Positions 8,929 through 57,197 of a stretch of 64,000 bases of DNA are shown in pieces; position 1 is the first letter of the stretch, and every line of letters starts with the position of its first letter. Position numbers and translations under genes: made by a program. Origin of the DNA: Candidatus Woesearchaeota archaeon (GTDB taxonomy: Archaea; Nanobdellota; Nanobdellia; Woesearchaeales; WJIZ01); the NCBI GenBank assembly GCA_018303125.1, contig JAGVYS010000001.1, positions 5,886 to 69,885 on the forward strand, given 5' to 3'. The notes under the pieces are model-generated. The model did not search any database and had not been told where the DNA came from. It worked only from the letters and a program-made list of their open reading frames with translations.

Positions 8929-10368
8929 ATGTCTTTTTTTAAAAGCATAATATACAACTTGCCGGAGGTCGCCGGCCCTACGCAGAAAAAGCTGTCCTTC
9001 AAGGAAAAGCTGAAGTGGACGCTTATCATTCTTGTAATATATTTCGCTTTGGGACTTTTCCCACTGTTCGGGCTTGGTCAGAATTCCCTCCAGAATTTCG
9101 AATTCCTGTCCATAATCCTTGGCGCGCAGTTTGGCTCTATCATAAGCCTTGGAATAGGCCCAATAGTCACATCTTCAATAGTCCTGCAGCTCCTCAATGG
9201 CTCAGGCATAGTTAAATTCGACCTAAAAACCCCTGAGGGGAAAAAGACTTTTCAGGGAGTGCAGAAGCTGCTTTCCTACTTTTTCATAATATTTGAAAGC
9301 TCAATTTATGTATTCATGGGAGGTTTTTCTCCGCCGGTTATTGGCTCACAGTTAGGTACAACAATAGTTACTGGCCAGCTCTTCTTCAGGCTGCAGCTAA
9401 TCATGGTATTCCAGCTCATATTAGGAGGTATACTTATCCTTTTCATGGACGAGGTTGTTTCCAAGTGGGGATTCGGTTCAGGAATAGGCCTTTTCATAGC
9501 AGCAGGCGTATCCCAGTCAATATTCATCCAGGCCTTCAACTGGCTGCCTGGCCCTGATGGCGTCGAGGGCATTACTTATTCAGCTGGAAAACTCCCTGGA
9601 TTGTTTCAGGCATTGAGTGCTGGCGACCCGACAACCGCAGGCATAAATATCGCATCAATTCTTGCCACTATCCTTGTTTTCATGCTTGTTGTGTATATTC
9701 AGGCAATGAAAGTTGAGATTCCATTGTCATTCGGGAAGATAAGGGGCCATGGAATAAGGTGGCCGTTGAGTTTTATTTATACATCAAATATCCCAGTCAT
9801 ACTCGTAGCTGCCCTTCTTGCAAATCTCCAGCTTTGGGGAAGCCTTTTCCAGAATACGTTCTTCGGGCCTTTGCTAGGCCAGTATTCATCTGATGGCGTG
9901 CTTATAGGTGGCCTTGCTTATTGGCTAAGGGCACCTAACCTTGTCAGGACAATAATTGAGCAAAAAACATTATTCCTTAGCGCAGACATATACCTCCAGT
10001 CAATTGCATATGTTGTCTTTATGGTTGCAGGAGCAATTATATTCTCGATATTCTGGATGCAGACAGCGGGCATGGATGCGAGAACACAGGCAGGTAATAT
10101 GATGAGCTCTGGCTTGCAGATTCCTGGCTTCAGAAGAGATCAGAGAGTGCTGGAAAGCCTCCTTGGAAGGTATATCATGCCTCTAACAGTAATGGGCGGT
10201 GCAACTGTTGGTTTGCTTGCTGCCGTTGCTGACTTAAGTGGTGCATTATCTCAAGGTACAGGAATATTGCTTGCAGTCATGATAATTTACAGGCTGTATG
10301 AGGACATAGCAAAACAGCATGCTGTTGACATGAATCCAATGATGCGAAAGTTCATAGGGGAGAATTAA
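8929..10368 (+). CDS. secY: Preprotein translocase subunit SecY
   Basis: 10-TM protein with SecY plug and signature regions; conserved position after L15. Confidence 0.95.
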   Translation: MSFFKSIIYNLPEVAGPTQKKLSFKEKLKWTLIILVIYFALGLFPLFGLGQNSLQNFEFLSIILGAQFGSIISLGIGPIVTSSIVLQLLNGSGIVKFDLKTPEGKKTFQGVQKLLSYFFIIFESSIYVFMGGFSPPVIGSQLGTTIVTGQLFFRLQLIMVFQLILGGILILFMDEVVSKWGFGSGIGLFIAAGVSQSIFIQAFNWLPGPDGVEGITYSAGKLPGLFQALSAGDPTTAGINIASILATILVFMLVVYIQAMKVEIPLSFGKIRGHGIRWPLSFIYTSNIPVILVAALLANLQLWGSLFQNTFFGPLLGQYSSDGVLIGGLAYWLRAPNLVRTIIEQKTLFLSADIYLQSIAYVVFMVAGAIIFSIFWMQTAGMDARTQAGNMMSSGLQIPGFRRDQRVLESLLGRYIMPLTVMGGATVGLLAAVADLSGALSQGTGILLAVMIIYRLYEDIAKQHAVDMNPMMRKFIGEN

Positions 10369-11144
10369 TGGCATTCAGCAACATCCTTGACCCTGTCCTC
10401 GGGCCTTTGCTTCTCATTGATCCATTGCTTTCAATGTTCTTGATATCATTAGGAGTTTCCCTGCTCATGGTCCTCATTTACAAATTCACGACCAACCAGG
10501 AGCTCATGAAGAGGCTCAAGGAAGAAATGAAGGCCATGCAGAAGAAGGTAAGGGAGCTGAAAAATAATCCAGATGAGATGATGAAGGCAAACAAGGCTAT
10601 GATGGACTCAAACATGAAGTACATGAAACAGTCTTTCAAGTCAACGCTTTTCACGATGATTCCCTTACTGCTTATATTCGGCTGGATGGCGGCAAATTTT
10701 TCATACGAGCCAATTGGTCCGGGAGAGCAATTCTCCATAACGCTTCTCTTCAACAAGAACGCATCAGGCCAAGCAAAGGCTGAGGTTCCTGCAGGAATAA
10801 GCATCATAGGTGAAGCAGAAAAGAATATTACAGGAAGAATGGCAACATTCACATTCAAGGGCGAAAAAGGGGAGTATACAGGCACAAGCAGCATAAAGCT
10901 ATCCTACAAAAGCGCGGAACCGAAAATAGCGGAAACAGTTGAATTCAAGGACGTGCTGATAACTAATGGCCATAAATATTTACCAAAAGAAAAGCAGGTA
11001 AAAAACTCTGACCTCTCATTCATAAGCATTGATTACAAGAAAAGGATAGTGCTTCCTGGCCTTAACTGGGGCTGGCTCGGCACATACATTTTGTTCTCAA
11101 TTGTGTTCAGCCTTGTCCTGAGAAAGGCTATGAAGGTGTATTAG
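10368..11144 (+). CDS. DUF106-family membrane protein (archaeal YidC/Oxa1/EMC3-like insertase) carrying a ~125-aa extracytoplasmic insertion
   Basis: N-terminus ILDPVLGPLLLIDPLLSMFLISL...TNQELMKRLKEEMK...QKKVRELK is the DUF106 (MJ0480-like) signature; TM1, coiled coil, TM2, inserted domain, TM3. Confidence 0.7.
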   Translation: MAFSNILDPVLGPLLLIDPLLSMFLISLGVSLLMVLIYKFTTNQELMKRLKEEMKAMQKKVRELKNNPDEMMKANKAMMDSNMKYMKQSFKSTLFTMIPLLLIFGWMAANFSYEPIGPGEQFSITLLFNKNASGQAKAEVPAGISIIGEAEKNITGRMATFTFKGEKGEYTGTSSIKLSYKSAEPKIAETVEFKDVLITNGHKYLPKEKQVKNSDLSFISIDYKKRIVLPGLNWGWLGTYILFSIVFSLVLRKAMKVY

Positions 11145-11189: not shown

Positions 11190-11468
11190 ATGGTAGGAAA
11201 GGCATTAAGGTCAAGGTCATTCAGAAGAATAAAGGTCAAGGTACCTGGTGGAAGAGTAGTAGTTAGTTTCAGGAAAAGAGTACCTAAGCTAGGTTCATGC
11301 CACATTACAGGCGAAAAGCTCAAGGGAGTTTCAAGAGGTTTTGATTACCAAGTTAGAAACATGTCAAAAAGCTCAAAGAGGCCCTCGAGACCTTATGGTG
11401 GAGTGCTCAGCTCAAGGGCAATGAGACTCCTGCTAAAGGAAAAGGCAAGGAGAACATTCGGGGAATAG
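11190..11468 (+). CDS. rpl34e: 50S ribosomal protein L34e (eL34)
   Basis: RSRSFRRIKVKVPGGR...CHITGEKL zinc-ribbon-like L34e. Confidence 0.85.
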   Translation: MVGKALRSRSFRRIKVKVPGGRVVVSFRKRVPKLGSCHITGEKLKGVSRGFDYQVRNMSKSSKRPSRPYGGVLSSRAMRLLLKEKARRTFGE

Positions 11469-11527: not shown

Positions 11528-11914
11528 ATGTTTGATATAGGAAGAATAGTGATGAAAATAGCAGGAAGGGATGCAGGAAGAGAAGCAGTAATAGTAGATA
11601 CAATAGACAGCAATTATGTTCTTATTGACGGCAATGTAAGAAGGAAAAAATGCAATGTAAATCACCTTGAGCCAAGCCATAAAAAGATTGACATAAAGAA
11701 AGGTGCAGCCCATGAGGAGATTGCAAAGAAATTCGAGGAGCTGGGCTATGGGGTATGGTCAACAAAGCCAAAGCAGGTAGGAGAAAAGCCTGTAAAGGTC
11801 AGAAAGGAAAAGGTAGAGGAGCCAGCAGAGAAAAAGCCTAAGACAGCAAAAAAGAAGATAGTAAAGGATGCTGAAGTGACATCAGAGAAAAAGGCAGAGC
11901 CGAAGAAGAAGTAA
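11528..11914 (+). CDS. rpl14e: 50S ribosomal protein L14e (eL14) with a K/E/P-rich tail
   Basis: MFDIGRIVMKIAGRDAGREAVIVDTID KOW/SH3-like. Confidence 0.85.
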   Translation: MFDIGRIVMKIAGRDAGREAVIVDTIDSNYVLIDGNVRRKKCNVNHLEPSHKKIDIKKGAAHEEIAKKFEELGYGVWSTKPKQVGEKPVKVRKEKVEEPAEKKPKTAKKKIVKDAEVTSEKKAEPKKK

Positions 11915-15278: not shown

Positions 15279-16082
15279 TTAATATGCTCTTGGGTAACTC
15301 CCGAGCACCTTCAGGAAGAAGCTTTTACTTATTGATTTAAAAGCATTTTTGACATCCAAGTCAGACTCATGCCCCTGGAGGTCTATGAAGAAGATGTAAT
15401 CACCAAGCTTGCCTTTGGAGGGCCTTGACTCAATCTTTGTGAGGTTTATGCCCCTGTTGGCGAATTCACCTATGAGCCCATATAGCAATCCTGCCTTGTC
15501 TTTATGAGGGTATATTGCAATGCTTGTCCTGTCCTTGCCTGTCCTTGCATGCGACTTTTTATCGAGTACTACGAAGCGTGTTACATTGAACCTGCTGTCC
15601 TGTATGTCTCTTGCCACGCATTTGAGATTGTATTTTTTTATTGCCATCATTGGGACTATAGCTCCATATCCCTTCCCTTTGCTCATTGCAAGCTTCTCTG
15701 CAGATTTAGCATTGCTTTCAGTAGGAATAACTTCCACATCTCCCAAATGTGCCCTTATGAACTTCTCGCATTGGGCAAAGGCCTGCAGATTAGAATAAAT
15801 TTTCTTTATTTTTCCGTCGTTTGCCGCGAGATTGTGCCTCACTGGTATTATGATCTCTGCGCATATCTTCAGGTTGAAATCCATCAGTGCATCAAGCGTA
15901 AGCCCCACAGTTCCAGATACTGAATTCTCCAACGGCGCAATTCCCTTTTCTGCCTTTCCCTGCTTTACACAATTGAAAACATTCCATATCGTAGTCTGAA
16001 GAAGTATGCTTGTATTTCCGCTGTATTTTATTGCTGCCTCATGGCTGAACGTTCCTATCGGTCCAAGAGTTGCGATTTTCAT
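15279..16082 (-). CDS. pheA: Prephenate dehydratase with C-terminal ACT domain; no chorismate mutase domain
   Basis: IATLGPIGTFSHEAA...ENSVSGTV PDT signature; ACT-like C-terminus. Confidence 0.85.
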   Translation of the reverse strand: MKIATLGPIGTFSHEAAIKYSGNTSILLQTTIWNVFNCVKQGKAEKGIAPLENSVSGTVGLTLDALMDFNLKICAEIIIPVRHNLAANDGKIKKIYSNLQAFAQCEKFIRAHLGDVEVIPTESNAKSAEKLAMSKGKGYGAIVPMMAIKKYNLKCVARDIQDSRFNVTRFVVLDKKSHARTGKDRTSIAIYPHKDKAGLLYGLIGEFANRGINLTKIESRPSKGKLGDYIFFIDLQGHESDLDVKNAFKSISKSFFLKVLGSYPRAY

Positions 16083-16933
16083 TTTTTCTTTACTCTTCTT
16101 TTTGCCAATGTTTCAATAAGGTAGTTGGTATATTCAAATGCTTCCTTGTTGAACTCTTGGAAATAATCCGAGCCATGCTTGAAATATGTCGCAAATTCCT
16201 CTATGTTCTTATCCTTTATTATGCTATAGAGCTTTGTGCACTCCTCAAGGTATGCTTTGATGGCTTTCAGGCTATACTCATTGTTTATGCATATCTGCGC
16301 ATACAGATATGGGTTCTGGTAGAGAAGCCTGCCGATAACATCCATGTTAAGGCGATATGTTGGGCTGCTGTATTCCTCTCCTTGCATGACATTAACTCCC
16401 ATCCTCTCCCATACATGGCTTAGGGTTATAGAGCTAAAATGTGTTACGGACTGTATAACTGACATCATCTTGTCATGATCTGCTGCAGTGCTTATTTTCA
16501 ATTTTGCACCTTCCTTGAGCAGCATCTTGATTAACCATTCTCTCCATTTCTCCCCTCTTCCAGGGCAGATTACCATGGTCTGGTTTCTGAATGTTGAAAC
16601 ATATGGTCCGAAGACAGGATGAGTTCCTACTACTTCAGCTTTTGAATACTTAAGCATGGCTTCTATCGGCTTTTCCTTTATTGAAGTTACATCCATAAGA
16701 AGGGAAGATTCCTTGATTAATGGCCCTACTTCTCTTATTACATCGCATGTTGCCTCTATTGGGACTGATATGACCACAATGTCTGCATCAGACACTGCTT
16801 TCTTTGGATCATCATTTCTTCCTATTAGCATGACATCGCACTTGTGCCTCTCGAAAAATCTTCCAAGCCATCTTCCCATCTGGCCTTTTCCGCCTATTAT
16901 AGTTGCTTTAATTCTCATTGAAGTTTGCCCCAA
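16079..16933 (-). CDS. tyrA: Prephenate dehydrogenase
   Basis: Rossmann GGKGQMGRWLG plus PDH C-domain; 4-nt overlap with pheA. Confidence 0.8.
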   Translation of the reverse strand: MGQTSMRIKATIIGGKGQMGRWLGRFFERHKCDVMLIGRNDDPKKAVSDADIVVISVPIEATCDVIREVGPLIKESSLLMDVTSIKEKPIEAMLKYSKAEVVGTHPVFGPYVSTFRNQTMVICPGRGEKWREWLIKMLLKEGAKLKISTAADHDKMMSVIQSVTHFSSITLSHVWERMGVNVMQGEEYSSPTYRLNMDVIGRLLYQNPYLYAQICINNEYSLKAIKAYLEECTKLYSIIKDKNIEEFATYFKHGSDYFQEFNKEAFEYTNYLIETLAKRRVKKK

Positions 16934-18176
16934 TTTTTTTCATCTTTTCAACAAAGTAAGGGAATGTGACTGAAATGTGCTCTGCATCCTTTATTTCCGT
17001 AATGCCGCTTGCACACATGCCAGCACATGCAAGGGACATTATCACTCTATGGTCCTTGTATCCATCGACATTTGCGCCGTGAAGACTGCTGCGCTCTATT
17101 AATAGGCCATCTTCAAGTTCAGTTATTGACGCGCCCATCTTCTTCAACTCAGAGCACATCACAGCTATCCTGTCTGTTTCCTTTATCCTGGCCTGCGGAA
17201 CATTCTTAAGGACAGTTTTTCCTGATGCAAAGCATCCGACAATAGAGAGTATTGGCAAAAGGTCCGGAGTAGAATTAAGGTCTATCTCCCTGCCTTTTAG
17301 ATTTCCTGCTTTTATTGATACATCCATGCCTGAAATATTTATCTTGCATCCCATTTTCTTTAGTATTTCAATTATTTCCTTATCGCCTTGTGAATCATTT
17401 ATATCAACGCCGCTAACGGTTATTTCTGAGCCGGTTATAGCTGCTGCGCATAACGGGAATGCCGCCGAAGACCAATCCCCGGGAATCATTTTTGAAAATG
17501 ACTTATAACTTTGCTTTCCGTAAACTGTAAAATTTTTTATTCCTTCTCTCTTGTATCTTATCCCTTGTTCATCAAGCCACTCTAAAGTAACATCTACATA
17601 TGGCTGCTCATTTAACTGGTCATAGATTGTTATTTTAGTGTCCCCTTCAAGAAGAGGGCATGCCAGCAATAGGCTGCTTATGTACTGCGAGGTTTTGCCT
17701 GACACAGAAGTGCTTCCTGGAGTTATAGGTCCTTTTACTGATAAAGGTGCAAAACCATTCATGGATTTTGTTTTTGCACCTAGAATCTCCAGTGATTTAA
17801 GCAGAGGGCCCATCTGCCTTGTCCTCAGAGAGCCATCACCGTCAAAAGTGATCTCTTTTTCCTGAATGGCTGCCATGCTTGCCATAAACCTCAAAGTTGT
17901 GCCTGAATTCCCTACATCAATCTTGCTTGCCTTGAATTTTGGCTTGCCGCCAAGTCCGTGTACTTTCCACTCCGTGTCTTTTTCTTCCACTCTTGCGCCT
18001 GCTGCCTTTATTGCTGATAAAGCAGAAAGTCCATCCCCGGAATTAAGGGCATTTCGTATTGTGGAATCGCCATCTGCGAGCATAGCTATTACAGCAGCCC
18101 TTATTGTATGCGACTTTGAGCCAGGTACAATTATTGTCCCTTCAAGCTTCTTGGTAAACCCGCTTGCCAGCTTCAT
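16908..18176 (-). CDS. aroA: 3-phosphoshikimate 1-carboxyvinyltransferase (EPSP synthase)
   Basis: PGSKSHTIRA..., LGNSGTTLRF... signatures. Confidence 0.92.
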   Translation of the reverse strand: MKLASGFTKKLEGTIIVPGSKSHTIRAAVIAMLADGDSTIRNALNSGDGLSALSAIKAAGARVEEKDTEWKVHGLGGKPKFKASKIDVGNSGTTLRFMASMAAIQEKEITFDGDGSLRTRQMGPLLKSLEILGAKTKSMNGFAPLSVKGPITPGSTSVSGKTSQYISSLLLACPLLEGDTKITIYDQLNEQPYVDVTLEWLDEQGIRYKREGIKNFTVYGKQSYKSFSKMIPGDWSSAAFPLCAAAITGSEITVSGVDINDSQGDKEIIEILKKMGCKINISGMDVSIKAGNLKGREIDLNSTPDLLPILSIVGCFASGKTVLKNVPQARIKETDRIAVMCSELKKMGASITELEDGLLIERSSLHGANVDGYKDHRVIMSLACAGMCASGITEIKDAEHISVTFPYFVEKMKKIGANFNEN

Positions 18177-18180
18177 TATT

Positions 18181-19242
18181 CTAAGCTCTCACCAGTCTCT
18201 GCGCAAGAACAGCATCTGCAAGAACTATGTTGGTCATGTGTTCTATCACAGGAACTGCTCTTGGGCATAAGCAAGGGTCATGTCTCCCTTCCACGCTTAT
18301 CTTGGTAGCCTTGCCCTTATCATCAACTGTGCTCTGCTCCTTTGTTATTGAAGAAGGTGCTTTTATGACTGCCCTGAATATTATGTCCTGTCCTGTTGAT
18401 ATTCCCCCAGATATTCCTCCGGCATTGTTTGTGCGCGTGCTTATCTTCCCGGCCTTTGAATAAAAGGAATCGTTGTTCTCAGAACCTTTAAGGCCTGCTG
18501 CGCCAAATCCGGAGCCGAACTCTATGCCCTTTACTGCGCCTATGGAAAGTATGGCTTTTGCAATATCTGCATCAAGCTTGTCAAATACGGGGTCACCTAG
18601 CCCTTGGGGAGGATTCTTCACTACCACTTCAATTATCCCACCTATAGAATCACCTTCTTTCTTGACAGACTCAATCAGCTTCTCCATCTTCTTTGCAGCT
18701 GTCTTGTCAGGGCACCTTACGCTGTTCTTCTCTATTTCGCCATAATCAATTTTTTCTGCCCTTATGTTTCCTACCTGGAGCGTATACGCTATTACTTTTG
18801 TTCCTGTTATTATCTTCTTTGCCACTGCGCCTGCAGCCACCCTGCAAAGAGTCTCCCTTCCTGATGACCTTCCTCCGCCCCTATAATCCCTCATCCCATA
18901 CTTATTCAGGAATGCATAGTCTGCATGCCCTGGCCTGAAGAGGTGCTTTATTTGCTCATATTTGGAGGAATCAGCATCCTTGTTTCTAACAATAATGCAT
19001 ACTGGCGCTCCTGTTGTCTTTTCTTCGAATATCCCTGAAAGTATCTCTATCTCGTCTTTTTCAGTCCTTGGCGAAGTTACGTTGCTCTGTCCGGGCCTTC
19101 TCCTGTCCATCTCGGACTGAATGTCTTCCTTGGAGACTCTAAGCCCTGCTGGAACACCATCTATGACTGTCCCAAGCGCAACTCCATGCGATTCCCCGAA
19201 GGTTGTTACCCTAAAATGCCTTCCGAATGTGTTTCCCATCAT
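18181..19242 (-). CDS. aroC: Chorismate synthase
   Basis: FGESHG...GGRSSGRET signatures. Confidence 0.92.
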   Translation of the reverse strand: MMGNTFGRHFRVTTFGESHGVALGTVIDGVPAGLRVSKEDIQSEMDRRRPGQSNVTSPRTEKDEIEILSGIFEEKTTGAPVCIIVRNKDADSSKYEQIKHLFRPGHADYAFLNKYGMRDYRGGGRSSGRETLCRVAAGAVAKKIITGTKVIAYTLQVGNIRAEKIDYGEIEKNSVRCPDKTAAKKMEKLIESVKKEGDSIGGIIEVVVKNPPQGLGDPVFDKLDADIAKAILSIGAVKGIEFGSGFGAAGLKGSENNDSFYSKAGKISTRTNNAGGISGGISTGQDIIFRAVIKAPSSITKEQSTVDDKGKATKISVEGRHDPCLCPRAVPVIEHMTNIVLADAVLAQRLVRA

Positions 19243-19757
19243 TTCACCTTCGTGATTATCTCGTCTGCAATGACCTCAACTGAGCGCCCCTTTTGGTCTA
19301 TCTCAACATCGGCCGCATCAGAATAAATTCTGGACCTTTCCTTAAAAAGCTTTTCGAATGAGCCTCTCTTGTCTTTTCCAAAAAATGGTATGTCCTGCCA
19401 CTCAATCCTATTGTAAAGTATATCTGGATCTTCCTTTAGGTATACTATCTGGCCCATTAAGGCAATATTATCCCGATTTTCTGGGTCATCAAGCGCTCCT
19501 CCTCCAATGGAGATTATAGAATTTTTTGAATTCGTTATTTTGCCTATTGCCTCTTTCTCAATTTCCCTGAAATATTCCTTGCCTTGCCTCCTGTAAATCT
19601 CCCTGCAAGTTGCCTTCTCTCCATTTTTTCCTAGGTATATCTCCTCGATTATTGAATCTGTATCTATAAAGTATTTTGATAGCCTTTTTGCAAGAATCCT
19701 GCCCAAAGTTGTTTTTCCTGATGCTTTGAATCCTATCAGTATTATATTATTGCCCAT
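19239..19757 (-). CDS. aroK: Shikimate kinase, bacterial AroK/AroL P-loop type
   Basis: Walker A GFKASGKTT, DTD, ISIGGGA, VYL, and a C-terminus that aligns with E. coli AroK. Confidence 0.85.
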   Translation of the reverse strand: MGNNIILIGFKASGKTTLGRILAKRLSKYFIDTDSIIEEIYLGKNGEKATCREIYRRQGKEYFREIEKEAIGKITNSKNSIISIGGGALDDPENRDNIALMGQIVYLKEDPDILYNRIEWQDIPFFGKDKRGSFEKLFKERSRIYSDAADVEIDQKGRSVEVIADEIITKVK

Positions 19758-21207
19758 AAAGAACCTTCTCTATTACTCCCTCCTGATGCCTTATCCCTGT
19801 CCAAAGTTCAAACTGCATTGCTGCCTGGTAGGCAAACATCCTTGCTCCAGATATTGTAACACATCCATTTTGTTTTGCCATTTTTAGCAGCTTTGTTTCC
19901 ATCGGATTGTATATTGCATCGAATACCGTAATGCCTTTAAGGTGCTTTTTCTCTACTGGGGATTTATTTATGTTTGGATGCATTCCAACAGGTGTTGAAT
20001 TTATCAGTATCTCGACATCATCCCAATTTATCTTTGATAGTGACGTGAATTTGCAATTAAGTTTTTTTGCAAGCCTCCTCGCCTTTTCCTCTGTCCTGCT
20101 AGTTATAGTAATTTTCCCGCCTTTAAGTTTTATCCCGTATCCTATTGCCCTTGCTGCGCCACCTGCGCCAATCAATATTGTGCTCTTCCCCTTTATGCTT
20201 ATTTTATCTTCTATTGCACTAATTGCACCGTATGCATCTGTGTTATACCCTCTCATATTTTCTCCATCAACCAATACGGTATTTACTGCACCTATCTTCA
20301 TTGAATCTTCATGCGTGCTATCTAGATAACTCGTTATCTCTTCCTTATAAGGCATAGTTACACTGAATCCTGAGAGCATGCTCCTAAAACTCTTTACAAA
20401 CTCCCCCAGATTGTCTACATGAAAGTTAAGGTAGACTGCATTAAGATTGTGCTTCTTGAAAAGATAGTTATGCACTATGAATCCTTTGCTCTTTGAGACA
20501 GGATTGCCAACAAGGCCGTATATTTTCAGGTTTTTAATTTTAAGCTTGTCTGCCCTGTAGATTCTTTTAAGCTCCTCGCACGGTATCTGTCCGGGAGAGG
20601 TCTCCTTTCCTGTGGCTACTGAACCAAAAGTTAAGTATGCGCCATACGCAAGGTTCAGTATCCTCGATATCTCCCCCTTCTCTCCCATACACAATGCAAT
20701 TATCCTTACCCCTTCTTTTCTTGCCTTCTTTATTATGTCAAGCATGATAAGGTTGTCTGATATGCTTCTTGCCATACACGCTATCTTTATTATGTCCCCT
20801 CCCAAAGATTTCATTTCCTCATATATGGAATGGATATTTTTAGGCACCCCTGAAAAATTATGGTAGGAGATGATTATTTTTGTCCTTCCTTTTCCGCTCA
20901 GAATTCTGTCAATTGCTTTTTTTCCCGAACTCATCTCTATGTCAACATAATCCGCCCCACGAGCAATGCATTCTTGCAGCAATTCTATCCTATTCTTCTC
21001 CTTCCGGCTGAAAATCCCTCCATCTTTCTTTTTCCTACAGGTGAATATTATGGGCAATCTTTTCTTCGAAGATATCTTGCTTATGCCATTTTCTGGAATT
21101 TTCTTTATGCCGTCAAGCCTTATCTCGGCCAAATCAGCACAGTTTTCATTGGATAAAATCTTGATTATCTCATCTATAGAAGAAGCTACAACTGACCTGC
21201 ATATCAC
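19747..21207 (-). CDS. aroDE: Bifunctional 3-dehydroquinate dehydratase (type I) / shikimate dehydrogenase fusion
   Basis: N-terminal half is the type I DHQase TIM barrel; C-terminal half has SDH signatures (GAGGAARA Rossmann). Confidence 0.85.
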   Translation of the reverse strand: MICRSVVASSIDEIIKILSNENCADLAEIRLDGIKKIPENGISKISSKKRLPIIFTCRKKKDGGIFSRKEKNRIELLQECIARGADYVDIEMSSGKKAIDRILSGKGRTKIIISYHNFSGVPKNIHSIYEEMKSLGGDIIKIACMARSISDNLIMLDIIKKARKEGVRIIALCMGEKGEISRILNLAYGAYLTFGSVATGKETSPGQIPCEELKRIYRADKLKIKNLKIYGLVGNPVSKSKGFIVHNYLFKKHNLNAVYLNFHVDNLGEFVKSFRSMLSGFSVTMPYKEEITSYLDSTHEDSMKIGAVNTVLVDGENMRGYNTDAYGAISAIEDKISIKGKSTILIGAGGAARAIGYGIKLKGGKITITSRTEEKARRLAKKLNCKFTSLSKINWDDVEILINSTPVGMHPNINKSPVEKKHLKGITVFDAIYNPMETKLLKMAKQNGCVTISGARMFAYQAAMQFELWTGIRHQEGVIEKVLYGQ

Positions 21208-22283
21208 ATGAGTTCACCTATTGCTCTCTCGGCTATTTTCGAGCCGACCCTTACTCCAATTCTTGAGTTTCCTATCCCTACTGGAAGTACATATTTTACG
21301 CCATCTGAAGTATTCTTCTTGTCTGCTGATGTATTGAGCAATATCTTCTCTACAGGCTGCTTCTTGTAAGGAAGCAATAGCTTTCGTACTAATGAGGTTA
21401 TCCTAGAATAATCATTTTCTTGGACCATGCCAAGGTTTCTTGCCATCGCTGTCTCTGCCAGAATGCCAAGGGCAACAGCCTGCCCATGCTTGATTGAATA
21501 GCCGGAAGCTGATTCTATTGCATGCCCTATAGTATGCCCGAGATTTAGAACTTTCCTCAATGAAGATTCTTTCTCATCCTTCTCAACTATGCTTTTTTTT
21601 ATTGAGGTGCACCAGTAAACGGCTTTAATCAGCGTTTCTTTATCAAGGGAAATTATTTTTTCAACTGAATTTTCCATGAATATGAAGAATTTTTTGTCCA
21701 GGGCTATTGCATGCTTTACCATTTCAACTGTTCCATTTATCATCTCTTCCTTGGGAAGTGTCTTCAGCATATCCATGTCCATATATACTGCGGAAGGCTG
21801 GTAAAATGTCCCTATCATATTTTTCCCATATGGTATGTTTATCCCTGTCTTGCCGCCTATGCTGCTGTCCACCATTGCAAGAAGCGTTGTTGGGTACTGG
21901 ATGTAAGGGATACCCCTCATGTAAGTAGATGCAACATATCCTGTAATATCTCCTACAACCCCTCCTCCCAATGCTACGATAGCTGAATCCCTCCTGAATT
22001 CGAGCGAAAACAACTCATCCTCTATTGCCTCCTTCGTTTTCCTGTTCTTGCTCTTCTCTCCTGCTTCAAAGCTTATCAGTTCTGCCTTAATGCCTGAGCT
22101 GCGAAGCCTTTCCAGATGCGTGCTTCCATGAAATTTCTTTACTTCAGAATCTGTAATAATTGCAACCTTTGAGAATCCCCTGAGTTTTTCCGAAAGTTTA
22201 TGAATGAGCCCGGTGCCGAGCAGAATTGTATAGCTGTAATCTTTCTGCCTTATCCTTACCTTTAGCTCATTGTTGCGTGGCAT
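21204..22283 (-). CDS. aroB: 3-dehydroquinate synthase
   Basis: [14 protein letters not shown]...GGKTGIN..., HAIE... metal ligands. Confidence 0.9.
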
Positions 22284-22284
22284 A

Positions 22285-23295
22285 TCATAATGTCCTTCCT
22301 ATTGCCCTGGATAAGTCCTTCAACTCATGCATAAGCTTGCCGAAATCCTCTGTGCTTATTGTCTGGTCTGCATCAGAAACTGATTTTTCGGGGTGCGTAT
22401 GTACTTCCAGCAGCAGGCCATCTGCACCTGCGGCAACCGCTGCCTTGGCAATAGGATTCACAAGGCTCCTTCTTCCTGTGCCGTGGCTTGGGTCCGCTAT
22501 TACAGGAAGATGTGTAAGTTCCTTCAAAGCAGGAACAGCTGCTATGTCTATAGTGTTTCTTGTGTAATTCTCAAATGTTCTTATGCCTCTCTCGCAAAGT
22601 ATCACTTCCCTATTGCCGCTGGACATGATGTATTCTGCTGCAAGAAGCAATTCATTATAGGTTGCCCACATTCCTCTTTTTAGCAGCACAGGCTTCATTG
22701 TTTTGCCCACTTCCTTAAGAAGAGGGTAGTTCTGCATGTTTCTCGTGCCTATCTGCAGGATATCAGAATATTTTGAAACAATGCCGACGTACCTTGGGTC
22801 CATTACCTCTGTGACTATTGGCAAGCCGGTAGCTTTCCTTACTTTTGCAAGTATTTTCAGACCTTCTTCTCCAAGGCCCTGGAAGTCGTAAGGCCCTGTC
22901 CTTGGCTTGAATGCTCCTCCCCTTAATATCTTTGCTCCATATTTTTTTACCCTCATTCCTATCTCAAGCATCTGCTCTTCAGATTCCACAGAGCATGGCC
23001 CTGCTATAACGATTATTTCTTTCCCGCCAAATACAACATTGCCGACTCTTACTTTGCTTTGGCTCTTTCCCTCTTTGCTGGCAAGCTTGTAAGGCTTTAG
23101 AACCTCTATGACCTTCTCTACCCCGTCCATGGCTGACAGGGAATCCTTATGCAGAACCCTTTCATTCCCTACTATCGCAATTACAGTACGTTCAGTGCCT
23201 ACTATTGGCACAGGCTTAAGCTTCGATGCCTTGACAGCTTCGATTACTTTGTCAGCCTGTTTGGCTGTTGTGCCTTTCTTCATTATTATTATCAT
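22285..23295 (-). CDS. 3-deoxy-7-phosphoheptulonate (DAHP) synthase, class I-beta, with N-terminal ferredoxin-like regulatory domain
   Basis: Residues ~1-70 ([16 protein letters not shown]...[11 protein letters not shown]) align with the T. maritima DAHPS FL domain; the rest is a KDO8PS/DAHPS I-beta barrel (GPCSVES..., ADPSHG). Confidence 0.85.
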
Positions 23296-28766: not shown

Positions 28767-31400
28767 ATGGTTTTCAAATGGATTAATAACAAACTGGGTG
28801 CTGGTAAAGCTAGGTTTGATAGTTCTGCGCCGGTGGTATGGACAAAGGACAAAGTAGATAGGACAAGGTCTACGATAGGCTCAGAGAGTGCCGAGGCAGA
28901 CAAGTTCAGGTCAAAAGGTGCCTTAACAACTATGCTAATTTTGGCCCTTTTAATAAATTATATTCTGGAAGGGTTCATTCCTGCATTCAGGTTTTCTGGC
29001 TTCGAGTTAAGTTTTTTCATCGGGACAATAGTCTACGGCGATTGGGTCGGAATATACAACCTTTTCCATTTCAACATTTTCTTCCTTCTTGTTGCATTTG
29101 CGGTATTCAATCTGAGAAACGGGAAGCCCCATATTCTCAGAGTATGGCTCGGTCTAATACTTATTGCTTACTTGCTTAGCTCAATACCCATACTCAACAC
29201 CTATATGGGCATAAGGAATTTTATTGAATTAATCATGCTGATAATTTCTGCCATTTACCTTTCCTTCAGTGAGACAACAAAAGAGGATTTCATATCTACT
29301 ATTGTTGTTATGTGGGCTTTCTACAACATTTTCTTCTTCGGCATTACTAGCACTATAGGAGGCCTGACTCATTTCATATTCATCATCCTTTTCTTCATAA
29401 TTTTCTGCATGGGAAACCACTTTGCAGAAGATAGGACTCAGATAAAATGGTGGCTCATAATACTAATCCTGTTTGATTTTTTCCTTCCGCAAATTCTTAA
29501 GGCGGCTTATCCTACTATACCTGTTGACTCCCTGCCATGGCTTACTTTCGGAATGGTAATATTTGGTAATGTCTACAAGCCGTATTGGTTCCCGAGATTT
29601 TTGCTTATAGCGCTGGTTGCATTCTATTTCCTGCAATATGCTTTCGCAGGCAATGATACATTTGCCCAGATAATTGGCCAGAGGGGTGCAGACCAGGAAA
29701 ACATAGCTGAGAGAATGAAGTTCCTAAACCCGAAAGAATGGTTAAACAGGATAACTCAGTGGACAAATCAATCTGTATATTATGCCTCAGGTCAAAACTA
29801 TTATGCGGGAAGGGTGGATGAGAACGCGAAGAAAGACCTTGGAGTGTTTATAGAGGGGATGGACCGTAACGATAAGATATTTTACGACAATGAAAGGATA
29901 ATAATCGATGCAAACCTAAAGGCCCAGAACTTCGTATCTGAAGAGGACGTTGGCTTTGAATCTCTCACCATACAGCTGGATTGCTGGGCGCAACAAAATG
30001 GGAAAAATTTCGCCCATGGAAAGATTTATCCGAAAAACAAGTATGAGATTGACGCATTTGATACTGAGAGCATACAGTGCATATTCGATCCATGGCAGCT
30101 CCAGCTTGGCTCATATGATATAATTATAGAGGCAACATTTAACTTCCAGACTCAGACATACCTCAAAAGATATTTTGTAAATACCCTGCTTTTAGACTCC
30201 CTCAAAAGTAAAAAAGTAATTGAAAAAGACTCAGACATATTGAAACTGAACAAGATAAGTGATACTATGCCTTCTGCAAAGAACAGCGCAGGTCCAGTGG
30301 AAATACGCGTGTCTGATCAGGTTCCAAGCATAATAGAGCTTAGCAATGAGATTGACACAAAGCAGATATTTGGCGTGCAGATTGCCAACAGATGGAGAGG
30401 CGAAATAAAGAGGATAAAGGGATTTGAGTTTTACCTACCGGACGGCATATATCTTGATGAAGGATACTGCACATTTGCTATGGGTATCGATGCTATAAGC
30501 GACAGCAGGTTTGAGGGCTACATCAAATACTCGCTCCAGGAAAAGAACAACATCAGGCTGAGAAACATAAAGAAGGAAATTGTACAGAGATGCTCGCTTG
30601 CCATGAAAAAAGGAGACATTGAAAAAGTCCTTGGGCCTGAGGATGTTACCACAAGGTATATACAATTGAAGACTGATTATGACTACCTTATGAAGGAAAG
30701 CGTAGGAATAACAGTTGCAGAGCCTCCTGGCGTAAACATGAAGATTTTCTCGCCTGACAGGGGCGCTATAGATTCAGGCAGCATGCCACTATGCAAGATA
30801 ACCTATGACAAAAAGGAGTCATTTATCCTATGGCTCCTTGGCGCAGCAGGAGTTGGCCTTAAGAACACTGTTGTTTTCGAGCTTTATGCTGGTGACAGTC
30901 TTGTAGAGCCTATGGTGCAGGAGCAATGTACCGAGGCAAGGTGCGAGCACTTTTACGAAAAAACGTTCCCTAAAGGCACAAAATTGAGATGCAAGGCAAC
31001 AGTGGATACTTCCAGATTTGATGAGCCTGCAGAGTGGCAGGAGCCAGAGGCTTACGTCATTGTGAAAAACAGCGCCCCAGTTGTTAAAAGCGTAGACTAT
31101 CTGAGGGATGCAAATTATGGTCTTACAACGAGAGAGTATGTCAAAGGTGACATTGCCATCTGTTCTGCAAGCGTTGAGGACAGAGATAATGATGAAATAA
31201 TTGCAGAGTTCAGCTTCGAGGGCTTTGATGTTGCCCCGACGACAAAGGAGTGCAGGGGCAACTGCTTCGTTGAAATCCCCACAGGAAGTGCACAAAAGGC
31301 AACAGCTATGACCTGCAAAGTAAGGGTTTTCGACGGAGAGGATTATAGCAAAGAAGTATCAACCAATGCGAATCTGGTTATGTTAGGTGCATCACCTTGA
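28767..31400 (+). CDS. Large polytopic membrane protein (about 8-9 TM in residues ~50-330) with a ~550-aa Cys-rich C-terminal ectodomain (hypothetical)
   Basis: Hydrophobic-helix pattern in the N-terminal third; many Cys in the C-terminal domain; no family recognised. Confidence 0.55.
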   Translation: MVFKWINNKLGAGKARFDSSAPVVWTKDKVDRTRSTIGSESAEADKFRSKGALTTMLILALLINYILEGFIPAFRFSGFELSFFIGTIVYGDWVGIYNLFHFNIFFLLVAFAVFNLRNGKPHILRVWLGLILIAYLLSSIPILNTYMGIRNFIELIMLIISAIYLSFSETTKEDFISTIVVMWAFYNIFFFGITSTIGGLTHFIFIILFFIIFCMGNHFAEDRTQIKWWLIILILFDFFLPQILKAAYPTIPVDSLPWLTFGMVIFGNVYKPYWFPRFLLIALVAFYFLQYAFAGNDTFAQIIGQRGADQENIAERMKFLNPKEWLNRITQWTNQSVYYASGQNYYAGRVDENAKKDLGVFIEGMDRNDKIFYDNERIIIDANLKAQNFVSEEDVGFESLTIQLDCWAQQNGKNFAHGKIYPKNKYEIDAFDTESIQCIFDPWQLQLGSYDIIIEATFNFQTQTYLKRYFVNTLLLDSLKSKKVIEKDSDILKLNKISDTMPSAKNSAGPVEIRVSDQVPSIIELSNEIDTKQIFGVQIANRWRGEIKRIKGFEFYLPDGIYLDEGYCTFAMGIDAISDSRFEGYIKYSLQEKNNIRLRNIKKEIVQRCSLAMKKGDIEKVLGPEDVTTRYIQLKTDYDYLMKESVGITVAEPPGVNMKIFSPDRGAIDSGSMPLCKITYDKKESFILWLLGAAGVGLKNTVVFELYAGDSLVEPMVQEQCTEARCEHFYEKTFPKGTKLRCKATVDTSRFDEPAEWQEPEAYVIVKNSAPVVKSVDYLRDANYGLTTREYVKGDIAICSASVEDRDNDEIIAEFSFEGFDVAPTTKECRGNCFVEIPTGSAQKATAMTCKVRVFDGEDYSKEVSTNANLVMLGASP

Positions 31401-38319: not shown

Positions 38320-39390
38320 ATGAACATAGCCATGCTTAAGGGATTTCTAATTCGAAAAAAAATAGAGGCTGCGTTATTTTGTTGCCTTGATTCAGAAATT
38401 GAGAGTAAGAGCATGTCATATTTTTCAGGTTATAATGGGATTGGGTGCCTCATAGTTCCGCGAAGTAATGAGCCTTTCCTTGTAGTGCCTAAAATGGAAT
38501 TTGAAAAGGCAAAGAAATCTGGAAAAGCTTATCTCTGGAAAAAAGGAGAGGGGCTATTTGAAACTGCTGTCAGGATAATGAAGGTGAAAAAGGCACCTAT
38601 GGGGGTTCTTGGACTGGAATGTAGAAATCTCAGCTTTTCTGCTTACAAATTAATTAAAAAATATGTCAAGTGCAGAATAAAGGATATAAGCCAAGATTGC
38701 CTTGCTATAAGGTCAATAAAAAAAGAAGATGAAATAGCCAAGATAAGGATTGCATGCAAAATAGCAGATAAGATATTAATGAGATGCGTAAACTCATTCC
38801 GCTCATTTGGCACAGAAGCAGATGTAGAAAAATTCCTTCATCTGGAAACAGTAAAGAGGGGTTGCAAGCTAGCTTTCAGGCCTATAGTTGCATCTGGAAA
38901 GAACTCTAGCATGCCACACTATGAACCTGCAAACACAAAAATATCTAAGGGTTTCTGTGTAATTGATTTTGGTGTTGAATACGAGGGGTATAATTCAGAC
39001 ATAACTAGGACAATATACTTGGGCAACCCTTCAAGTAAGGAGCAAGAAATCTATAATGCGGTTCTACGTGCAGAGGAAGAGGCAATTAAATCAATAAAAG
39101 TAGGTAACAAATGTTGTCATGCTAATGAAATCGCCTGCAGTGAGCTGGGGAAGCATGCAAAAAGGTTTATCCATGGCCTTGGGCACGGTATAGGATTAAA
39201 CGTTCACGAGCTGCCTAGCATCTCATCAAAATCTGCAGACATATTTGAAGACAGTATAGTATTCACAATAGAACCAGGAGTTTATTTTCCTGGTAAATTT
39301 GGAATTAGGATTGAAGACGATATACTACTTAGAAATGGAAAAGTTGAAATACTGACTAATTCGCCAAGAAACCTAATTGCAAAAGGGTAA
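38320..39390 (+). CDS. M24-family Xaa-Pro peptidase
   Basis: HGLGHGIGLNVHE and IEPGVY pita-bread fold motifs. Confidence 0.8.
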   Translation: MNIAMLKGFLIRKKIEAALFCCLDSEIESKSMSYFSGYNGIGCLIVPRSNEPFLVVPKMEFEKAKKSGKAYLWKKGEGLFETAVRIMKVKKAPMGVLGLECRNLSFSAYKLIKKYVKCRIKDISQDCLAIRSIKKEDEIAKIRIACKIADKILMRCVNSFRSFGTEADVEKFLHLETVKRGCKLAFRPIVASGKNSSMPHYEPANTKISKGFCVIDFGVEYEGYNSDITRTIYLGNPSSKEQEIYNAVLRAEEEAIKSIKVGNKCCHANEIACSELGKHAKRFIHGLGHGIGLNVHELPSISSKSADIFEDSIVFTIEPGVYFPGKFGIRIEDDILLRNGKVEILTNSPRNLIAKG

Positions 39391-39391
39391 A

Positions 39392-41152
39392 ATGGAAAAA
39401 TATAACCTTAAAAGATTCTCAAAAAGCGTCAGCAGATACAAGAGGATACTTGGAGATATAAGGGGAAAGAGCATTTTAGTGGTTCTTGATGTATCCCAAA
39501 AGGAAGCTTTCTACTCTGTTGCGCCACTATCAAGGGCAGTGCATGAAAAGGGAGCCGATATGCACGTGTATGTCATAGGAAGCTCATCTTCCAGTTTGGA
39601 CGTTCTCAAGAGTGTTTGGACAACATACAGCGAGATGAAATCCGGACTTAAGAGCAAAAAGGGATCTGCATTGAGAGATTTCATTAGCAAGGCAGACAAA
39701 AAATGCAATGGTGCCATAGAAGGTATTTTCAGACACCCTGAAAAGTTCGTAAAAGCAAGGGGAAAAGGGTTCGAAGGTTCTTTTAGTCTTCCATATGACA
39801 TCTCCTGGATGAAAGAATATAAGAAAAAGGAACTGCTTAAAACATGCAAAATAATCTGGAAACAAGTCTATAACTTGCAGAATAATGAAAAAGTGGGCAT
39901 AAACTTTGAGCTTGTAGGTTCTGTCTTAGGTTTGCCTATAGAAGACTATCTTGATTCTTTCCAGATAAGCTACAATATGATGCTTTCTGTTAAGTCACAA
40001 GTCACAGGGATGAGCAGCTCCACGCCTCGCAAATCGCAGCTTGATGCTCCTGAGAGGATTTCAGAGCTTAAGGCAACTTTGCTTGGGTGCGAACTTTCAA
40101 AGGGTTCAAAAGAGCCAATCTTTGCCAGTTTCAAAAAGCTTTCTAGTCTGCTAAGCATAAGCAAGATGACAATCTCAAGTGCTGTATTCGGGATACACGG
40201 TAAGGGTTATCCTGGAAAGCATTATTTCGGGGAATGTGTTGGCTACCCATCTCCAAATGGAAAGACAAGGTGGGAAACACCTGGCCAGATGGTATACAAG
40301 CTTGATTTTTATCCGCAAACTGCCCTTGACCCTAGGAAGCCCAGAGCTAGGATAGCATTCACGGAAACAGTCCCTATAGACATTTTCATAAAAACATGCA
40401 AAATAGACTGGCTTAAAATGAAAGAAAGAGATGACAGCATAATCAGGCTGGCTGATAAGTGCCAGTACATCATTGTCGAAGGCAAGAAGTTTGGAAAATA
40501 CAGGACAAGTCTCAAAGTATGGCTGGAAGACAAGGGAAAAAGGTACAGGTTCAGGGGTTCTGATGTTGAGACTAGGAACCTGATAAGCCCGCACTATCCT
40601 AATAAAAAAATAGTTGCAGGCACAATGGCCAATATACCTGGAGGAGAGGCTTTTACCACTCCAAAATATGTCAAGGGACAGTTTATAGGGGATGTTGTGA
40701 TAAGCCTTGACCAGAGTTATAAGCTCAATGCTAAAGATCCTTTTGTCATAAACTGCTATGGTAACCGCTATAAGGTAATAAGGGAACCTAAAATCATTGG
40801 GATGAAATTCAAGGAAAAGAAAAAGCAGGCATGGAAAAGGATATTGAACCAGGAAAAAAACAAGGCAGTGCCAATGAGCATTGTTAATCTTCAGAAAGAA
40901 AACTTTAATAACATAGGCGAATTCGCGATAAATACGAATCCAAAAGCAGAACTATGCAATTACCTCATTGTTAACGAGAAGATAGCAAACATGATTCATA
41001 TTGCGCTTGGTTCTGGTTTTGAAGCTGAACGCTCAACAACATACCATACTGATATTGTCATAGATGCGCCACGTCAGCAGTTGGACATATACGGTGTAGA
41101 TAATAATGGGAAAAAGTACTGGATACACAAGAAAGGCAAGTTTGTTATTTAA
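39392..41152 (+). CDS. M29-like aminopeptidase paralog with a long N-terminal extension
   Basis: C-terminal half shares NIPGGEAFTTP / IHIALGSGF / YHTDIVID with the downstream M29-like gene; ATG at 39392 follows the stop of the M24 gene. Confidence 0.45.
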   Translation: MEKYNLKRFSKSVSRYKRILGDIRGKSILVVLDVSQKEAFYSVAPLSRAVHEKGADMHVYVIGSSSSSLDVLKSVWTTYSEMKSGLKSKKGSALRDFISKADKKCNGAIEGIFRHPEKFVKARGKGFEGSFSLPYDISWMKEYKKKELLKTCKIIWKQVYNLQNNEKVGINFELVGSVLGLPIEDYLDSFQISYNMMLSVKSQVTGMSSSTPRKSQLDAPERISELKATLLGCELSKGSKEPIFASFKKLSSLLSISKMTISSAVFGIHGKGYPGKHYFGECVGYPSPNGKTRWETPGQMVYKLDFYPQTALDPRKPRARIAFTETVPIDIFIKTCKIDWLKMKERDDSIIRLADKCQYIIVEGKKFGKYRTSLKVWLEDKGKRYRFRGSDVETRNLISPHYPNKKIVAGTMANIPGGEAFTTPKYVKGQFIGDVVISLDQSYKLNAKDPFVINCYGNRYKVIREPKIIGMKFKEKKKQAWKRILNQEKNKAVPMSIVNLQKENFNNIGEFAINTNPKAELCNYLIVNEKIANMIHIALGSGFEAERSTTYHTDIVIDAPRQQLDIYGVDNNGKKYWIHKKGKFVI

Positions 41153-56700: not shown

Positions 56701-57197
56701 TAAGGCCTGACCTAAGTGACGGCGCGGTTGATGAGATTAAGAAATATTACCTGAAAATGAGAAGCTCTTCATCTGGCGATAATGAGATAAAAGCCATCCC
56801 TATATCCGCAAGACAGCTTGAGGCACTTATCAGGATGTCTGAGGCCAATGCAAAGTTGAGGCTCGATACTAAAGTTACGAGAGAAGATTCCAAAAAGGCA
56901 ATAGACCTCATGCACTATTGCCTAAGCCAAGTCGGCCTTGACCCAGAAACTGGCCAGATTGATATAGACAGAATTTCAACAGGTATAACTGCATCAGAAA
57001 GGGGAAAAATATCATTGATAAAGGAGCTCATAACAGAACTCGAAGGCAGGTTAGGGAAGACGATACCACTTGAAAAATTGTCTGAGGCTGCCAAGGAAAA
57101 GGGAATTTCAGAAGAAGATGTCAATGATATAGTGGAAAAGCTAAAAAGGGCAGGAGACATATTTTCGCCACGCCCGGATATAATATCCAAGCTGTAA
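53784..57197 (+). CDS. mcm: MCM replicative helicase (extein 672 aa) interrupted by an intein in the Walker A P-loop
   Basis: C4 zinc finger CPGCG...CGCG; Walker A GDPGAGK|[intein]|S; Walker B CVDELDKM. Confidence 0.92.
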   Translation: MDVTEQIRRFTEFIDSFCKEQILARIKKDEKFLNLDFVELIRFEPELADIILEQPEEAIKAAETAVGHFDTLGDVSKFKARFCNVSLSHKVVIRNIRSKMLDKFLLLEGVVRQKSDVRPQVILAKFECPGCGNILSVLQLESKFREPTRCGCGRKGKFRPIDKEMVDAQGIVLEESADDLEGGEQPKRINLLLKNDLVSPMSEKKTNPGSRIRVGGILKEVPILAKDGGKLTRFDVMIDVNYVESIDEDFSSIEISDHESNEILKISRDPHLREKLINSVVPSIYGHERIKEAVLLLMAGGVRKTRDDGSVTRGDIHILLIGDPGAGKCVAGNTKIMLQNGEIVRIDDFSERAGIIEESKKIEATLLPTLFYNGKMNTGKAVRVWKRQCNEKLIKIITRSGKELNVTQDHPLFTVDSGFIISKKARDFSIGERIAAPRMIEISGEIQILSGFVYKKYSNNLKKLSYPVVLDKKLARFLGYLCGDGYISYSKTSGYASITNNDTYVLKDFSTLLQLLFRAEARFRQPNKSKSCCEVASYGKSLVDFVKFYFVSLVNLAAKKDIPEKVLRSPDDVLAEFIKGLFECDSHVNIKKRQIEFSSISKSLAENLQMCLLRFGVVSFFKTKEKYATNSKDKRKVKSYEIVIGGIFASDYVKKIGYISEKKRKQGEILLEKITYFNTNVDLIPNINSLLKCIRREHALYQRGMGVSRSCFAHLDHGDRLPSVETARKIVRHLKLNGYKSTLISLLEEIANAEIFWDEITSIIETPDESNYVYDLEVEGTHNYVANGIVIHNSQILKRVSKIAPKGRFVSGKGVSGAGLTASVVKDEFLSGWSLEAGALVLGNKGVVCVDELDKMNSEDRDAMHEALEGQQVTIAKANIQATLRAETTMLAAANPKFGRFDPYEVIPKQIDLPSTLINRFDLIFPVRDLPSGDKDEKLASFVLNLHQSPNMVSPDIDSVLLRKYFVYARQKIRPDLSDGAVDEIKKYYLKMRSSSSGDNEIKAIPISARQLEALIRMSEANAKLRLDTKVTREDSKKAIDLMHYCLSQVGLDPETGQIDIDRISTGITASERGKISLIKELITELEGRLGKTIPLEKLSEAAKEKGISEEDVNDIVEKLKRAGDIFSPRPDIISKL
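54768..56162 (+). mobile_element. Intein (465 aa) with LAGLIDADG homing-endonuclease domain inserted in the MCM P-loop
   Basis: Begins with Cys (CVAGNTKIML); block B TQDHPLFT; LAGLIDADG blocks LARFLGYLCGDGYIS and LAEFIKGLFECDSHV; ends YVYDLEVEGTHNYVANGIVIHN followed by the Ser of GAGKS. Confidence 0.85.

Follow-up and report, generated by a model that had tools for sequence, protein, structure and literature searches.

Insertases of the YidC/Oxa1 type belong to the few universal machines of membrane biogenesis, and their archaeal branch is the least studied. Family members adopt an N-out/C-in topology with a cytosolic coiled coil, and YidC-type insertases handle substrates whose translocated regions are small (PMC5868721). 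Lewis and Hegde described the H5 helix of archaeal YidC by an aliphatic residue at the end of the groove, an aromatic residue at position -1, polar residues at +3, +7 and +11, and an interfacial Trp (PMC8675477). The h4h5 connector that joins H4 to H5 corresponds to EH2 in eukaryotes and in archaea other than those described here, and to a TM hairpin in bacteria (PMC8675477, Table 1). Gram-negative YidC carries P1, a periplasmic β-supersandwich that is non-essential for core insertase activity (PMC4252904). The experimental evidence for the archaeal protein MJ0480 consists of RNC binding and crosslinking, short of direct proof of insertion (PMC6098224).

The window analysed here, a 64-kb stretch of Woesearchaeota DNA taken as a whole, encodes an archaeal member of this family (Table 1). 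In agreement with the first-pass annotation, which had recognised a DUF106 (YidC/Oxa1/EMC3-like) protein directly after secY, both genes are identified by their Pfam matches, and reading of the sequence reveals that the secY stop codon and the DUF106 ATG have one base in common (TAATG, 10366–10370). This overlap and the GGGGAG element upstream of it suggest that the two genes may be translationally coupled. The DUF106 ORF (10368..11144, + strand) is one unbroken frame, and an ORF on the opposite strand (10478..10894) is a mere shadow of this coding frame. The 64-kb window holds no second DUF106 copy. An identical protein is deposited in NCBI as a DUF106 protein of Candidatus Woesearchaeota archaeon, and the database labels of its relatives read simply DUF106 or EMC3/TMCO1 family.

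Table 1. Features of the secY–DUF106 locus, with coordinates of the window and residues of the DUF106 protein (AF2, AlphaFold2).
Feature	Residues	Position	Strand	Basis or remark
secY (479 aa)		8929..10368	+	Pfam SecY E=3e-61, Plug_translocon; directly upstream of the DUF106 gene
Shine-Dalgarno-like GGGGAG		10357..10362	+	Within the 3' end of secY, 5 nt before the DUF106 ATG
DUF106/EMC3-TMCO1-family (archaeal YidC-like, Ylp1-type) insertase gene, complete	258 aa + stop	10368..11144	+	
N-terminal extracytoplasmic helix EH1 (2–16) and TM1 (19–41)	1–41	10368..10490	+	AF2, hydropathy
Cytoplasmic coiled-coil hairpin CH1/CH2, lysine-rich	42–88	10491..10631	+	AF2 helices 44–63, 68–111
TM2 (H4), conserved IFGW motif (W106)	89–111	10632..10700	+	AF2, hydropathy, conservation
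Predicted Ig-like β-sandwich ectodomain in place of the h4h5 connector (EH2)	112–235	10701..11072	+	
TM3 (H5), groove motif, basic C-tail RKAMKVY	236–258 + stop	11073..11144	+	Aligns to MJ0480 169–195
Ribosomal protein L34e gene		11190..11468	+	Downstream neighbour; Pfam Ribosomal_L34e E=3e-19
KOW-domain ribosomal protein gene (L14e-type)		11528..11914	+	Second downstream neighbour; Pfam KOW

The ORF list and Pfam matches give a gene order of S5-L30-L15-SecY-DUF106-L34e-L14e, the S5-, L30- and L15-like ORFs lying farther upstream of secY. These flanking genes place the DUF106 gene in the tail section of the archaeal spc ribosomal-protein operon. Canonical archaeal DUF106 genes, including MJ0480-type YidC orthologs, are likewise found after secY where the spc operon ends. 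In Methanocaldococcus infernus the order is L30-L15-SecY-adk-like-DUF106, and this synteny supports orthology of the window gene with the canonical archaeal DUF106 gene. Unlike M. infernus, the window has no adenylate kinase gene between secY and DUF106, and no gene separates DUF106 from L34e. Among related Woesearchaeota loci, secY lies directly upstream of the DUF106 gene in 56 of 80, and the KOW gene is co-located with that of L34e. The spacing varies in these genomes, from 5 bp to 2.2 kb between DUF106 and L34e and occasionally 0.6–2 kb between secY and DUF106; in one locus (L010), the latter gap contains two small membrane-protein ORFs on the opposite strand.

The protein matches the Pfam family EMC3_TMCO1 (PF01956, formerly DUF106) with 61.5 bits, well above the gathering cutoff of 27.1 (E=1e-16), over residues 7–121 only, and all listed homologues carry PF01956. 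A search against PDB sequences returned a single significant match, MJ0480 (Ylp1) of Methanocaldococcus jannaschii (5c8j, 207 aa, E=1e-11), in which residues 6–112 align to MJ0480 12–122 and residues 229–255 to MJ0480 169–195. From the limits of the Pfam and MJ0480 alignments it follows that the family match is split by an insert. Hydropathy analysis revealed three hydrophobic segments (~10–40, 90–112 and 232–255) with a hydrophilic stretch between the last two. An AlphaFold2 model of the whole protein, calculated from a 31-sequence alignment (mean pLDDT 91.6, pTM 0.77), comprises helices at residues 2–16, 19–41, 44–63 and 68–111, 11 β-strands across residues 121–221, and a helix at 236–255. 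The helices 19–41, 44–63, 68–111 and 236–255 reproduce the arrangement of the PF01956 family, and the core is structurally similar to solved members. Besides belonging to PF01956, the protein has the three-TM core, cytoplasmic coiled coil and H5 groove motif in common with MJ0480/Ylp1 and canonical archaeal DUF106 proteins.

K39 and Q44, which end TM1, are both invariant; for K39 this extends to Methanocaldococcus homologues. W106 is present in 99% of sequences. Of the soluble parts, the coiled coil is conserved best, with a mean pairwise identity of 61%. Among relatives, each of the TM3 residues W236, Y240, I241, S244, S248 and R252 is either invariant or conserved to at least 94%, and Methanocaldococcus homologues have most of these motif residues as well. 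They coincide with the archaeal H5 pattern: I241 as the aliphatic residue, Y240 at -1, S244, S248 and R252 at +3, +7 and +11, and W236 as the Trp. Position -3 is a Gly in the window protein and not polar. The conserved TM3 pattern and the invariance of K39 and Q44 argue that the insertase core looks intact.

The first-pass annotation had placed a hydrophilic, β-rich segment of about 125 aa between TM2 and TM3, at positions 10701–11075, which correspond exactly to residues 112–236 (SYEPIGPGEQ...LNWGW). Hydropathy and AlphaFold2 bear out this description. Within residues 112–235, the model contains no helix except for one short turn, and the insert modelled alone reached a mean pLDDT of 86.8. 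The insert is predicted to be a folded Ig-like β-sandwich of ~115–125 aa. The counterpart of residues 112–235 measures 110–133 aa (mode 115) across 189 distinct sequences, the sole length exception among distinct relatives being one truncated fragment; the insertion is hence present in relatives, which the annotation had asked to be checked. The mean pairwise identity of the insert is 36%, compared with 49–67% in the TM and coiled-coil parts (core ~60%). Its conserved positions are P118, F122, F128, G134, G165, G168, I198, Y204 (invariant) and I219. Among the aligned relatives, conservation in the insert thus falls on glycines, prolines and core positions of hydrophobic or aromatic character, and on no acidic or basic residue, His or Cys. 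The faster evolution of the insert than of the core fits a scaffold, and also fits a lineage-specific binding role.

To place the insert relative to canonical proteins, we used a control search seeded with the full Methanocaldococcus infernus protein, which returned 103 clusters; an earlier control seed, the MJ0480 fragment from the HMMER alignment, had yielded 2 matches only. The 103 clusters come from Methanococcales, Methanobacteriales and other Euryarchaeota and, apart from fragments, measure 165–205 aa. The exceptions in this search are three Woesearchaeota-type proteins of 249–254 aa. Measured as the number of residues between the TM2 aromatic (W106) and the TM3 Trp (W236), the connector is 26–59 residues long in canonical proteins (median 43, n=92), 118–128 in Woesearchaeota-type proteins and 129 in the window protein. 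In MJ0480, 46 aa connect TM2 and TM3. Contrary to the first-pass annotation, the canonical loop is therefore not a short one, and it carries EH2. In the alignment, the partly hydrophobic canonical connector has no counterpart in the window protein. Taken together, the connector counts, the alignment and the helix-free model show that the β domain replaces EH2, with a net gain of ~70–85 aa, and is not the 125-aa addition that the first-pass annotation had described. Whereas canonical DUF106 proteins are 165–207 aa long with an EH2 connector, the window protein has 258 aa and an Ig-like domain of ~120 residues as predicted.

Comparison with more distant insertases reveals that this is not the only elaboration of the H4-H5 connector. 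Bacterial YidC carries the h4h5 hairpin at the same place (TM3/4 in monoderms, TM4/5 in diderms; PMC8675477). However, the bacterial hairpin consists of membrane-embedded helices over the distal face of H5, whereas the archaeal element would be a soluble β domain outside the membrane. The H4-H5 position shows tolerance of lineage-specific elaboration. The eukaryotic TMCO1, EMC3 and GET1 proteins have short lumenal TM2-TM3 connectors, unlike the window protein with its β-sandwich within the insertase chain. Lumenal β-sandwich or β-propeller domains of the EMC are supplied in trans by other subunits (EMC1/7/10).

The variant is real and lineage-wide in a DPANN clade comprising Woesearchaeota, Pacearchaeota and Nanoarchaeota. 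The best 120 of 235 homologous clusters measure 245–265 aa, save for one 193-aa fragment, and show 39–57% identity from end to end. Their records bear the names Woesearchaeota, Pacearchaeota or Nanoarchaeota, and it is from such names among the best matches that the variant's taxonomic limit was read. Scanning one genome per GTDB species identified at least 491 genomes with a relative, of which the best 80 all match residues 1–258 and belong to the same groups. When 1.84 billion representative proteins were searched with a profile built from the insert only, 380 clusters (50% identity) matched at E<=1e-3, and 262 did so at the stricter E<=1e-10. The full-length matches are 240–278 aa long with the domain at about residues 105–240, and the shorter ones (~97–208 aa) are N-terminally truncated gene calls starting in the coiled coil or TM2. 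The domain was not found outside the DUF106 context among the 1.84 billion representatives searched. The first-pass annotation had named a common occurrence of DUF106 proteins this large as a refutation, and within one clade this is the case: 243–278 aa is the standard size in Woesearchaeota, Pacearchaeota and Nanoarchaeota, whereas the canonical forms sampled lack members of this size.

Two peculiarities of the database records deserve mention. A 2081-aa match (P0172, 20 matched stretches) was rejected as a genuine carrier of the insert and looks like a translated tandem DNA repeat. It consists of ~20 near-identical 70-residue repeats and reached E=3.5e-24 by the summing of weak repeat matches, illustrating that repeat proteins can give spurious significant profile matches. 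Several loci (L007, L014, L015, L019 and others) are titled 'uncultured Methanosarcinales archaeon' and stem from binchicken/SRP co-assemblies. These titles conflict with the Woesearchaeota-type DUF106 and operon at the loci, and look like taxonomic mislabels.

This distribution also bears on the question of whether the architecture could be an artefact, that is, a missed stop, a frameshift or a fusion of DUF106 with an unrelated β-rich ORF. The end of the Pfam match at residue 121 would agree with such an event, and the C-terminal half alone looks unrelated to the family. However, the frame is uninterrupted, and the TM3 that follows the insert aligns to TM3 of MJ0480 and carries the H5 motif. 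The 189 distinct sequences, which stem from assemblies made independently, repeat this architecture and length, as do at least 80 species genomes, and the AlphaFold2 model is confident for the whole chain. Nor are the relatives copies of one misassembly, being only 40–57% identical to the window protein. Conservation, TM3 homology and the confident full-length model rule out a frameshift or fusion artefact, whose probability we consider negligible. The missed stop or frameshift that the first-pass annotation named as a possible refutation is hereby eliminated, frame and segment being conserved in hundreds of relatives.

Residues 112–235 lie between two full TM helices, opposite the coiled coil across TM2, and should therefore be extracytoplasmic. 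The same placement follows from homology with the N-out/C-in family members and from the positive-inside pattern: K/R residues number 0 in residues 1–18, 12 in the coiled coil (42–90) and 3 of 7 in the C-tail. The outward orientation put forward in the first-pass annotation is thus retained as a prediction from family topology. The insert itself contains 17 K/R, which could point to a cytoplasmic or re-entrant segment and a different topology in this clade. This reading is very improbable: with 14 D/E the insert is near neutral, two full-length hydrophobic helices enclose it, and the coiled coil, which the family conserves as its basic cytoplasmic element, lies on the other side of TM2. Large folded domains, moreover, are not governed by the positive-inside rule. 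For family members, N-out/C-in has been shown experimentally (PMC5868721). The predicted ectodomain contains sequons at N131 (NAS, ~10758–10766) and N153 (NIT, ~10824–10832), which are not conserved among relatives and so speak weakly at best for an outside location.

The relationship of the insert to known domains was assessed by sequence and structure. Pfam scans of 24 insert sequences revealed no consistent family. Against PDB sequences, the insert profile matched only a gingipain C-terminal domain, at a non-significant E=0.02, and Foldseek returned nothing at E<=1e-3 for the whole model against the PDB. One conceivable function for such a fold is that of a PapD/MSP-like extracytoplasmic chaperone module that would use β-strand augmentation to capture translocated segments of pilins, archaellins or S-layer anchors and so widen the substrate range. 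The scores of the insert with PapD-like/MSP Ig-fold chaperones are matched or beaten by those of many Ig-like domains with no relation to them, such as those of complement MG, GH2, intimin and S-layer proteins, so that the fold evidence is generic. The insert has no sequence similarity to PapD-like families, and it lacks the conserved basic pair or polar motif used by chaperone-usher chaperones. A chaperone module of this kind is improbable.

The closest functional parallel is P1 of E. coli YidC (PDB 3wvf / 3bs6), likewise an all-β extracytoplasmic domain on a YidC-family insertase. However, P1 structures and EMC lumenal subunits are absent from the top structure matches, and the insert is not a galactose-mutarotase-like β-supersandwich of ~260–320 aa located N-terminal to the core. 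As P1 and the insert differ in size, fold and position, they represent independent acquisitions. The first-pass annotation had called an ectodomain on an insertase unusual. P1 is a precedent for such a domain as such (PMC4252904); what stays unusual is the position in the h4h5 loop, the fold and the lineage. In the literature on archaeal YidC/Ylp1, DPANN and Woesearchaeota insertases, we found no description of a DUF106 variant with an Ig-like insert, and the variant is apparently undescribed.

Considering all lines of evidence, we propose, with a probability of roughly 80%, that the protein is a Woesearchaeota-type ortholog of the archaeal YidC/Oxa1 insertase in which the connector has been replaced by a non-catalytic Ig-like ectodomain. 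The gene would be expressed from the tail of the spc operon, probably coupled in translation to secY. The core would consist of EH1, TM1, a basic coiled coil for docking of ribosome and substrate, TM2, and TM3 with its hydrophilic-groove motif. Given an intact insertase core, the protein should be able, like its relatives, to insert simple membrane proteins, whether by itself or together with SecY. The Ig-like β-sandwich would sit on the outer face of the membrane, beside the exit of the groove. It is most likely non-catalytic, judging from the alignment, because it has no conserved polar or charged residues. There it may brace the three-helix bundle, and it may present an outward-facing surface at which translocated segments of substrates, or partner proteins, dock or which acts on them as a holdase. 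We infer this role by analogy and from the absence of catalytic-looking residues; it would be analogous to that of Gram-negative YidC P1 and of the EMC lumenal β-sandwich subunits, with homology to neither. A translocated hydrophilic domain of ~120 aa would exceed the small translocated regions that YidC-type insertases are described as handling (PMC5868721), so that SecY is probably required for the biogenesis of the protein itself.

The ectodomain could alternatively serve as a specific docking site, for SecY/SecE/Sec61β, SecDF, the S-layer or a DPANN host-contact structure, or compensate for a lost EMC6-like partner. In favour of such contacts, E. coli YidC P1 contacts SecF, SecD, SecG and YajC (PMC4252904), an EMC6-like protein has been predicted as a partner of archaeal YidC, joined to it by H5 (PMC8675477), the gene is tightly linked to secY, and the variant is confined to the DPANN clade. 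However, the secY linkage is ancestral and common to canonical forms without the domain, and docking overlaps with an Ig-like ectodomain on an orthologous insertase rather than excluding it. We regard a dedicated docking site as possible yet doubtful. A similarly tentative extension of the Ig-like ectodomain reading is that the domain acts as a holdase or docking platform that alters the range of substrates or couples the insertase to SecY, SecDF, the envelope or host contact, that it arose once at the base of the Woesearchaeota/Pacearchaeota, and that it is the cis-encoded counterpart of P1 and the EMC subunits.

What is new here is a lineage-wide domain replacement in a universal insertase, which is not unique to this genome. 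A very large clade of uncultured archaea uniformly carries a folded ectodomain at h4h5, as modelled, so that, with the β domain beside the TM hairpin and the short helix, a single structural hot spot would have been filled in three independent ways. The clade lends itself naturally to testing what insertases gain from extracytoplasmic domains, and the domain could be a simple sequence marker for the clade. A further implication is that the insertase in these cells would itself rely on Sec to be assembled. The finding demonstrates no new mechanism, and we consider its importance moderate.

Several other features of the window may be of interest. ARAGORN detected no tRNA genes in the 64 kb, and no Rfam family reached the gathering threshold there. 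Two long ORFs, 28767–31400 (+, 877 aa) and 39377–41152 (+, 591 aa), have no Pfam match at E<=1e-5. The MCM helicase gene (53784–57197, +, 1137 aa) contains an intein with a LAGLIDADG homing-endonuclease domain, located at about aa 337–793 within the P-loop region. DPANN genomes are usually described as biosynthetically reduced. The reverse strand at 15279–23295 nevertheless encodes prephenate dehydratase with an ACT domain, prephenate dehydrogenase, EPSP synthase, chorismate synthase and a fused type I dehydroquinase/shikimate dehydrogenase, a full cluster for shikimate and aromatic amino-acid biosynthesis that is notable for a DPANN (Woesearchaeota) genome.
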